Under the pieces are notes generated by a model that was not told where the DNA came from, made no database searches, and saw only the letters and a program-made list of their open reading frames with translations. Positions 58,807 through 58,881 of a stretch of 64,000 bases of DNA are shown one piece after another. The stretch lies in the sequence record PV067732.1; one strand, written 5' to 3'. The first letter of the stretch is position 1. Each line of letters begins with the position of its first letter. The stretch is from Acinetobacter phage vB_AbaS-Bhz15. The position numbers were made by a program, and so were the translations under genes.

Positions 58807-58881
58807 CGTCGATTAGGTTAGCGGTTAGACCAACAGACTCTAAATCTGGGTGCCGGAGTTCGAATCTCCGATCGACGACCA
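58807..58881 (+). tRNA. tRNA with anticodon CUA (amber suppressor-type; Gln-like D-loop)
   Basis: Manual cloverleaf: acceptor cgtcgat/atcgacg, D-stem ggtt/gacc with loop AGCGGTTA, anticodon stem acaga/tctgg with one A.G mismatch, loop cTCTAaa with U33, T-arm cggag-TTCGAAT-ctccg, discriminator A, CCA encoded. Confidence 0.6.

Follow-up and report, generated by a model that had tools for sequence, protein, structure and literature searches.

Background

The laboratory amber suppressors supF/su3 tRNA-Tyr, supE, su7, the psu suppressors of phage T4 and the synthetic CUA series (reportedly the work of Normanly, Kleina, Abelson and Miller) all present the anticodon CUA in a loop with C32, U33, A37 and A38. 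The same arrangement is found in the gene studied here, a CUA tRNA encoded at positions 58807-58881 of a stretch of 64,000 nucleotides (nt) from Acinetobacter phage vB_AbaS-Bhz15 (PV067732.1), the whole of which we call the window. Laboratory suppressors are single-step mutants of sense tRNAs that persist under laboratory selection only, whereas the window tRNA is a natural gene conserved between genera and, unlike them, has no sense-anticodon sibling of the same body among five related phages or in IMG/VR. It is a genuine tRNA gene of amber-suppressor type, far beyond what chance would give, and very probably a functional tRNA that decodes UAG.

Phage suppressor tRNAs are normally explained by stop-codon recoding. 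Recoded phages such as the crAss-like and Lak phages (code 15, TAG to Gln; PMC7886860, PMC10879173) combine a phage CUA tRNA with a standard-code host, as here; the window phage differs in having no in-frame TAG in its genes, in keeping TAG as a stop and in showing no code switch. Closer cases are Stenotrophomonas phage Summit (PMC9022506), which has a suppressor tRNA and a standard code and for which "possible target genes ... not identified" is stated, and Klebsiella phage phiKp24 (PMC8386662), whose code is likewise standard and whose predicted suppressor tRNA also came without target genes; in these respects both resemble the present phage. These are single reports, whereas the Acinetobacter gene is conserved, structurally selected and found on two different bodies. 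In bacterial genomes of standard code, suppressor tRNAs occur in about 0.3% (PMC13092985). The gene itself would not surprise a specialist; the real question is why a standard-code lytic phage, here from a group of Acinetobacter baumannii phages used in therapy, retains an amber suppressor.

The CUA tRNA gene and its annotation

Judged by its sequence, the window is from a Hadassahvirus-like, T4-like phage of A. baumannii: the 2-kb surroundings of the CUA tRNA are 99% identical to those of the A. baumannii phages AB-Navy71, Maestro and Morttis, and 97% identical to those of AbTZA1 (Straboviridae, Twarogvirinae, Hadassahvirus). Using ARAGORN, we placed nine tRNA genes at the window's 3' end. 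The first is a 75-nt tRNA on the + strand with cta at position 34, labelled "Pyl" by the program from the anticodon alone. The match to Rfam RF00005 scores 60.7 bits (gathering threshold 29; E from 1.2e-11 to 1.2e-12), and the covariance-model alignment covers model positions 1-71 of 71, as for a canonical elongator tRNA, places CUCUAAA (C32 U33 C34 U35 A36 A37 A38) in a 7-nt anticodon loop and leaves A27.G43, at the top of the anticodon stem, as the sole non-standard pair. The cloverleaf is also the minimum-free-energy fold. As read from the sequence, the acceptor stem CGTCGAT/ATCGACG (C1-G72) is followed by U8 and A9, the D-stem GGTT/GACC, with U13.G22, closes an 8-nt D-loop (AGCGGTTA) with G18G19, the variable loop is GTGC (4 nt) and the T-arm is CGGAG-TTCGAAT-CTCCG; the gene further carries GTTCGAATC, a G15-C48 Levitt pair, the discriminator A73 and an encoded CCA. 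As in amber suppressors, the 7-nt loop thus has U33 before the CUA of positions 34-36 and a purine after it, at 37. The original prediction of a canonical 75-nt cloverleaf with a CUA anticodon, made from the sequence alone, is borne out by all of these analyses; it had named as adverse outcomes a different anticodon triplet or a score at pseudogene level, and we encountered neither.

The gene and the kind of element are already known and annotated. Ten phage records carry the window tRNA with a single difference in the D-loop, C16 vs T16 (98.7% identity), and in GenBank these near-identical genes are called tRNA-Pyl, tRNA-TERM or "tRNA-Sup-CTA", the last being the label of AbTZA1 and "tRNA-Pyl" that of Maestro, Morttis and AB-Navy71. 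The ZZ1 genome paper (Jin et al. 2014, PMC4177764) has "Sup (CTA)" in its tRNA table, with the Acj9 homologue as "Pyl (CTA)", and does not discuss function. In AbTZA1, Maestro, Morttis, AB-Navy71 and ZZ1 the gene has the same cluster position and anticodon as in the window and no material difference from it, these records giving a label only. Our literature searches found no functional study of the Acinetobacter phage CUA tRNA. New here are the structural and purifying selection on the gene, the occurrence of at least two unrelated bodies at one locus, an amino acid that is probably not glutamine and the failure of programmed read-through in a comparative test.

The label tRNA-Pyl was considered and rejected. 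tRNA-Pyl has a compact D-loop lacking G18G19, a 3-nt variable loop and a 6-bp anticodon stem, and goes with PylRS and pylBCD. The window tRNA has a canonical D-loop with G18G19, a canonical TPsiC loop, a 4-nt variable loop and a 4+1 anticodon stem, so that the CUA anticodon is the sole likeness, and no pyl genes are annotated across the whole AbTZA1 genome. Phage-therapy dossiers should name the gene correctly and not as "tRNA-Pyl".

Conservation on two tRNA bodies

In at least four genera (Hadassahvirus, Acajnonavirus with Acj9, Zedzedvirus with ZZ1, and Lazarusvirus) the tRNA cluster opens with the CUA tRNA, and the order upstream is the same in all four: 57B, two small open reading frames (ORFs), then the CUA tRNA. 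We collected seven distinct CUA tRNA orthologues or analogues and parsed their stems by hand on structure. Type 1 bodies (window/AbTZA1, Acj9, ZZ1) have C1-G72, a GGTT D-stem and a 4-nt variable loop; type 2 bodies (Lazarus, AB1I1P, PhT2) have a GCTC or GCTT D-stem, a 5-nt variable loop and A-U or G-C at 1-72. Compensatory changes on both sides of a stem pair affect 10 of the 21 pairs in type 1 (61/63 cells paired), 8 of 21 in type 2 (63/63) and 17 of 21 when all seven are taken together (144/147); the figures for type 1 and for all seven show the stem covariation of a canonical tRNA. The tertiary 15-48 pair also covaries, as G15-C48 or A15-U48. C32, the anticodon C34 U35 A36, A37 A38 and A73 are unchanged in all seven, and the gene is under purifying selection. 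At position 33 the ZZ1 copy (L003:4890-4963) has C in place of the near-universal U, giving the loop CCCUAAA.

T4 tRNA-Ile has its variable loop and T-arm in common with the type 2 CUA tRNA, and a metagenomic CAU tRNA from IMG/VR has the same anticodon stem. From this resemblance to tRNAs with a CAU anticodon, type 2 most likely arose separately from type 1. In PhT2 the flanks are ~97% identical to the window, yet the gene at the locus is of type 2, which points to an exchange of cassettes during which a CUA tRNA was retained. Together with the invariant CUA, A37 A38 and A73 on differing bodies, this exchange is strong evidence, at the level of sequence comparison, for selection on UAG decoding or, at the least, on a working tRNA that carries this anticodon loop.

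Two of the type 2 genes, those of PhT2 (L038:1496-1572) and AB1I1P (L037:416-491), carry one U too many on the 3' side of the acceptor stem (CAGGT-T-GC opposite GCACCTG), and this U bulges out if G1-C72 and C2-G71 pair. A sequencing error is not the cause, for the U is present in both variants, which are set apart elsewhere by compensatory changes. In fHyAci03, a phage of A. pittii, the first 30 nt of a type 2 CUA tRNA run straight into the 3' portion of the CAU tRNA next to it (L039:1501-1575); the acceptor strands of the fused gene are mismatched, ARAGORN makes no call and RefSeq has "tRNA-Met, possible truncation". By its sequence, this gene is a natural loss of the suppressor by deletion. 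tRNA calls on Ac42 gave no CUA tRNA.

The anticodon arm stands in the context of strong laboratory amber suppressors, with C32 U33 CUA A37 A38, the closing pair A31-U39 and a non-Watson-Crick 27-43; A36 A37 A38 is the usual context of the i6A37 modification. Positions 28-42 (CAGACUCUAAAUCUG) are those of E. coli tRNA-Tyr bar G34C, i.e. the classical supF arm, a likeness that may reflect convergence or ancestry. A supF-type tRNA-Tyr was nevertheless rejected as the identity of the gene, as its 4-nt variable loop and C1-G72 stand against the required long variable arm and G1-C72. All four CUA tRNAs checked for the purpose (window, Acj9, ZZ1 and Lazarus, hence both bodies) have a non-Watson-Crick 27-43 (A.G or G.U), vs 17 of 46 other tRNAs of these phages, and CUA tRNAs with 27-43 unpaired are described as better readers of UAG, and sometimes of UAA too (PMC13092985).

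Which amino acid the CUA tRNA would carry

The original prediction took the D-loop as a sign of tRNA-Gln and proposed a supE-like suppressor inserting glutamine; if derived from a T4-type tRNA-Gln, such a suppressor would suit the fact that the first tRNA of the T4 cluster is tRNA-Gln. GlnRS recognises C34 and U35, and many CUA tRNAs are mischarged with glutamine in E. coli (PMC9976931). Measured against the glutamine identity set (G73, weak U1-A72, G2-C71, G3-C70, G10, U35), the window tRNA agrees at G2-C71, G10 and U35, but it has A73, a strong C1-G72 and U3-A70, and G73, a weak 1-72 pair and G3-C70 are required for glutamine identity in E. coli (PMC9976931). A73 is present in 7/7 variants and 1-72 is C-G, A-U or G-C. 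T4 tRNA-Gln, with U1-A72 and G73, has no similarity to the window CUA tRNA, and the D-arm motif TAGGTTARYGGT..AGAC is widespread, occurring also in phage tRNA-Glu, Trp, Lys and Ile (IMG/VR), hence it is not diagnostic. The supE-like derivation thus did not hold up and appears unlikely.

According to the review of Giege and Eriani, U35 in an amber suppressor leads to the insertion of lysine, A73 matters for lysine identity and G73 moves such tRNAs towards glutamine (PMC9976931). In its U35 and A73 the window tRNA resembles the lysine-inserting class of suppressors reportedly defined by Normanly et al. 1990. Both positions are unchanged in the seven CUA tRNAs while 1-72 varies, and, as only A73 and the anticodon loop are common to both bodies, this fits a synthetase that reads just the anticodon and position 73. 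In the study of Normanly et al. 1990, the CUA forms of the Ile2, Met(m), Val, Thr, Arg and Asp tRNAs reportedly gave mainly lysine, and the CAU ancestry suggested for type 2 fits this. By analogy with E. coli we would give lysine about an even chance of being the amino acid; another residue (Pro, Leu, Glu or Tyr) is possible but doubtful, and glutamine rather less probable again.

No donor of the CUA tRNA was found by BLAST in 5,426 E. coli genomes, and when 46 tRNAs from five related phages were compared all against all, none with a sense anticodon came close to type 1. Scans of IMG/VR that allowed any anticodon brought up the isolate genomes and, beyond them, a single CAU tRNA. As a candidate phage-encoded synthetase we considered the "histidyl tRNA synthetase" of AbTZA1 (L008:7175-7759, 194 aa, outside the window) and rejected it; it has no Pfam match at E <= 0.01, and from its sequence the annotation looks unfounded.

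Stop codons and read-through

Stop codons were counted with a simple ORF caller in the window (64 kb; 76 ORFs: TAA 54, TGA 19, TAG 3), in the whole genomes of AbTZA1 (168,223 bp; 249 ORFs: TAA 171, TGA 64, TAG 14) and ZZ1 (252 ORFs: TAA 176, TGA 65, TAG 11), all with the CUA tRNA, and in 68 kb of Ac42, which is without it (124 ORFs: TAA 73, TGA 45, TAG 6). One of the three TAG ORFs of the window is spurious and lies within the RNA region. For comparison, TAG makes up 7.4% of stops in E. coli and is the rarest bacterial stop in general (PMC8954436). When TAG was treated as sense, no TAG-split gene appeared in AbTZA1 or ZZ1; TAG is still a stop and is not found in frame within conserved genes, as it is in recoded phages. 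The phage uses the standard code, and the earlier statement that there is no global TAG recoding was correct.

The same finding bears on mutational insurance, i.e. the idea that the tRNA partially rescues amber mutations (CAG or TGG to TAG) arising in the phage population. Under laboratory conditions nonsense mutants can indeed be rescued by phage suppressors (T4 psu; cited in PMC8386662), and that the gene can be lost, as in fHyAci03, would suit a benefit of this kind. However, no gene of AbTZA1 or ZZ1 is interrupted by TAG, such second-order selection is weak against conservation in four genera with repeated replacement of the cassette, and an inserted lysine would seldom restore the wild-type residue, all of which makes this explanation distinctly unlikely.

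A further possibility is programmed read-through, in which the tRNA would exist for extended or fused phage proteins, such as gp4-gp2 in Hadassahvirus or a 52-aa membrane peptide of the window that the original prediction had put forward. In both the window and AbTZA1 the gp4 TAG shares its frame with gp2 and could be read through by the tRNA into gp2, and two more AbTZA1 genes ending in TAG are in frame with the next gene (gp127->gp128 and gp210->gp209); three such cases among ~12 are at the chance level of one third. As a conserved target gp4 was rejected, since only Hadassahvirus has TAG at its end (Acj9, Lazarus and Ac42 have TGA, ZZ1 has TAA) and the frames differ. Its TAG lies in the Shine-Dalgarno sequence TAGGAG of gp2 (55015-55029, ATATAGGAGTTAACCATG), two codons before the gp2 ATG. 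The same overlap of stop and Shine-Dalgarno is seen at gp210/gp209 of AbTZA1 (TAGAGG), and some TAG stops may be by-products of it. The stop of the membrane peptide is TAG in the window and in AbTZA1 but TAA in the Lazarus homologue, with the same C-terminus LLWLK.

Comparison of whole genomes points the same way. Among 179 reciprocal-best orthologue pairs of AbTZA1 and ZZ1, 106 are TAA/TAA, 25 are TGA/TGA and none is TAG/TAG, and seven AbTZA1 and five ZZ1 TAG stops are TAA or TGA in the orthologue of the other phage. When all TAG-ending ORFs of at least 25 aa were considered, the only TAG-TAG pairs were shadow ORFs lying within conserved genes and a pair of homing endonuclease paralogues, with no real gene pair among them. 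The median read-through extension is 10.5 codons after TAG, 8 after TAA and 6 after TGA. There is no conserved target in these phages, i.e. no orthologues that keep both the same TAG stop and a coding extension; on these sequence comparisons programmed read-through as a conserved function, and with it the suggestion that specific TAG-ended genes of this phage are served, is largely refuted and seems quite improbable as the reason for the tRNA.

A proposed role in termination

It could also be supposed that the RNA has no part in decoding. Its partner would then be a host nuclease or modification enzyme that targets tRNAs, with the RNA serving as decoy, inhibitor or substrate mimic and the CUA loop being kept for recognition. 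The loop from C32 to A38 is indeed almost invariant while the bodies differ, the cluster holds conserved tRNA-like RNAs unable to decode, and the tRNA-repair enzymes PseT, RnlA and RnlB are encoded by the phage. On the other hand all features for EF-Tu and the ribosome are kept (full cloverleaf, T-loop, 15-48 pair, A73-CCA, 7-nt loop) and we know of no nuclease recognising CUCUAAA, so that we regard a non-decoding function as very improbable. A decaying or neutral relic resembling a suppressor, for which one could cite the loss in fHyAci03, the RefSeq pseudogene marks on some neighbouring cluster tRNAs and C33 in ZZ1, has next to no likelihood in view of the 60.7 bits, the 17/21 compensatory stem pairs and the anticodon unchanged on unrelated bodies.

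The reading that we prefer is that of a functional, partial and untargeted amber suppressor whose benefit lies outside the conserved phage ORFs, and as a whole we consider it to have an even chance of being right. The tRNA would be transcribed within the cluster transcript, an early-type promoter-like site being present upstream (Table 1), and then processed and charged by a host aminoacyl-tRNA synthetase, probably LysRS. The charged tRNA would compete with RF1 at UAG, and ribosomes would run on to the next in-frame UAA or UGA. Suppression would be general and partial and would serve no dedicated conserved phage gene; this absence of a dedicated phage target we judge rather probable. The phage would tolerate it, as ~5% of its ORFs end in TAG, TAG stops turn over fast and most soon meet TAA or TGA. 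Since the tRNA is kept by selection and no conserved phage ORF needs it, the benefit is probably outside the conserved coding sequences of the phage. The benefit that we favour, tentatively, concerns termination in the infected cell, either through UAG-ended mRNAs of the host or of competing mobile elements or as relief when RF1-dependent termination is limiting; a host- or termination-directed benefit of this kind is possible rather than probable.

Several observations weigh against this preferred reading. TAG stops make up 4-6% of ORFs with or without the CUA tRNA, so that active suppression has left no genomic footprint, and no excess of nearby back-up stops after TAG was found. ZZ1 has TAG as the stop of both gp32 and gp15, and suppression in that phage must therefore be weak or do no harm. 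The loss in fHyAci03 implies that a phage can do without the CUA tRNA in at least one host. T4-like phages stop host expression early, which limits a host-directed benefit. The amino-acid estimates given above extrapolate E. coli rules and experiments, and the expression, charging, amino acid, efficiency and benefit of the tRNA are all things that we infer.

A more elaborate version, which we consider a long shot, makes the CUA tRNA part of a module that reprograms termination together with two tRNA-like RNAs of the cluster and a mimic of RF1 domain 3 devoid of GGQ, both described below. The mimic would weaken RF1/RF2, by occupying ribosomes or by titrating the GGQ methyltransferase, and the tRNA would make UAG sense. 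If true, the module would be a transient, phage-imposed code change aimed at the mRNAs of the host or of rival mobile elements and not at phage genes. A strict coupling of the RF-1 domain ORF with the CUA tRNA was rejected, as Ac42 has the ORF and is without the CUA tRNA.

If the suppressor is active, the ends of ORFs in these genomes would be read differently, and the termini of host or competitor proteins could change in infection. The gene would also be a ready-made natural amber suppressor for Acinetobacter genetics.

Neighbouring elements of the tRNA cluster

Table 1. Position of the CUA tRNA, of the TAG stops discussed in the text and of neighbouring elements in the window
Feature	Coordinates	Strand	Evidence or remark
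CUA tRNA gene, amber-suppressor type	58807-58881	+	ARAGORN; Rfam RF00005; cloverleaf as minimum-free-energy fold; 98.7% identity to annotated genes
Anticodon C34 U35 A36	58840-58842	+	ARAGORN and covariance-model alignment; loop CUCUAAA at 58838-58844
TAG stop of gp5.1-like ORF (51680-52138)	51680-51682	-	read-through adds 6 aa; ZZ1 orthologue ends in TGA
TAG stop of gp4 (head completion)	55015-55017	+	overlaps Shine-Dalgarno of gp2 (55027-55866), in frame with gp2
TAG stop of 52-aa membrane peptide (62939-63097)	63095-63097	+	read-through adds 38 aa to a second in-frame TAG, with TAA/TGA one codon on
57B	57604-58062	+	"RNA ligase / 2',3'-cyclic phosphodiesterase" in relatives; Pfam Acb1 (anti-CBASS nuclease), E 1.1e-50
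Early-type promoter-like site	58075-58103
Degenerate class-II-like tRNA, just upstream of the CUA tRNA	58690-58785	+	Rfam 20.4 bits (below threshold); anticodon arm broken
102-nt tRNA-like element	58886-58987	+	acceptor GGGUACU/AGUAUCC (G3.U70), D-arm, T-like arm, ACCA end, large central insert
Conserved non-coding segment	59000-59160	+	no Rfam match, no convincing ORF
Conserved tRNA-like RNA	59175-59252	+	no ARAGORN call; Rfam tRNA 31.9 bits (threshold 29)
78-aa ORF, stand-alone release-factor domain 3	59713-59949	+	Pfam RF-1, 42.9 bits

The CUA tRNA is surrounded by several unusual RNAs (Table 1). The degenerate tRNA just upstream of it is 93% identical to a segment of ZZ1 (L003:4607-4720) and has the same position as an odd 93-nt "tRNA-Tyr" of Acj9 (L002:4879-4971). 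The 102-nt element is 100% identical to its Lazarus copy (L004:4951-5052) within flanks of ~85%, and stands there between tRNA-Cys and tRNA-Leu, like a gene; the ZZ1 copy is without 25 nt of the insert. The flanking tRNA-like RNAs showed no sequence similarity to rnaC and rnaD of T4. The non-coding segment at 59000-59160 is 94% identical to L003:5228-5388 of ZZ1, where it lies between tRNA-Met and tRNA-Cys, a value far above that of the surrounding DNA.

The tRNA-like RNA at 59175-59252 has an acceptor GGGAAUG/CAUUUCC with G3.U70 (the alanine identity mark), A73, CCA and a good T-arm; its "anticodon" loop has 6 nt, and it is therefore unable to decode. A ZZ1 homologue (L003:4971-5053) is 76% identical and keeps the fold with six compensatory pairs and a 10-nt loop. 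Weak Rfam matches of tmRNA type (19 and 13 bits) are also seen. The gene annotated as "tRNA-Leu (UAG)" in Lazarus (L004:5054-5131; also L037:494-571 and L039:1738-1815) is 78 nt long, which leaves no room for the long variable arm of bacterial Leu tRNAs, and its amino-acid identity is for that reason uncertain.

The 78-aa RF-1 ORF within the cluster has as its best PDB match residues 218-276 of E. coli RF1 (E 2.7e-18). In place of the catalytic GAGGQH the ORF has GAS-NW, so that the product would be unable to hydrolyse peptidyl-tRNA, and GGQ is absent in all four genera and in Ac42. With this motif absent, the GenBank labels "peptide chain release factor" and "peptidyl-tRNA hydrolase" given to the ORF are doubtful. 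GGQ is likewise missing from the homologues of Pseudomonas phage 73 and Xanthomonas phage NR08, in which GASAW stands at the corresponding site.

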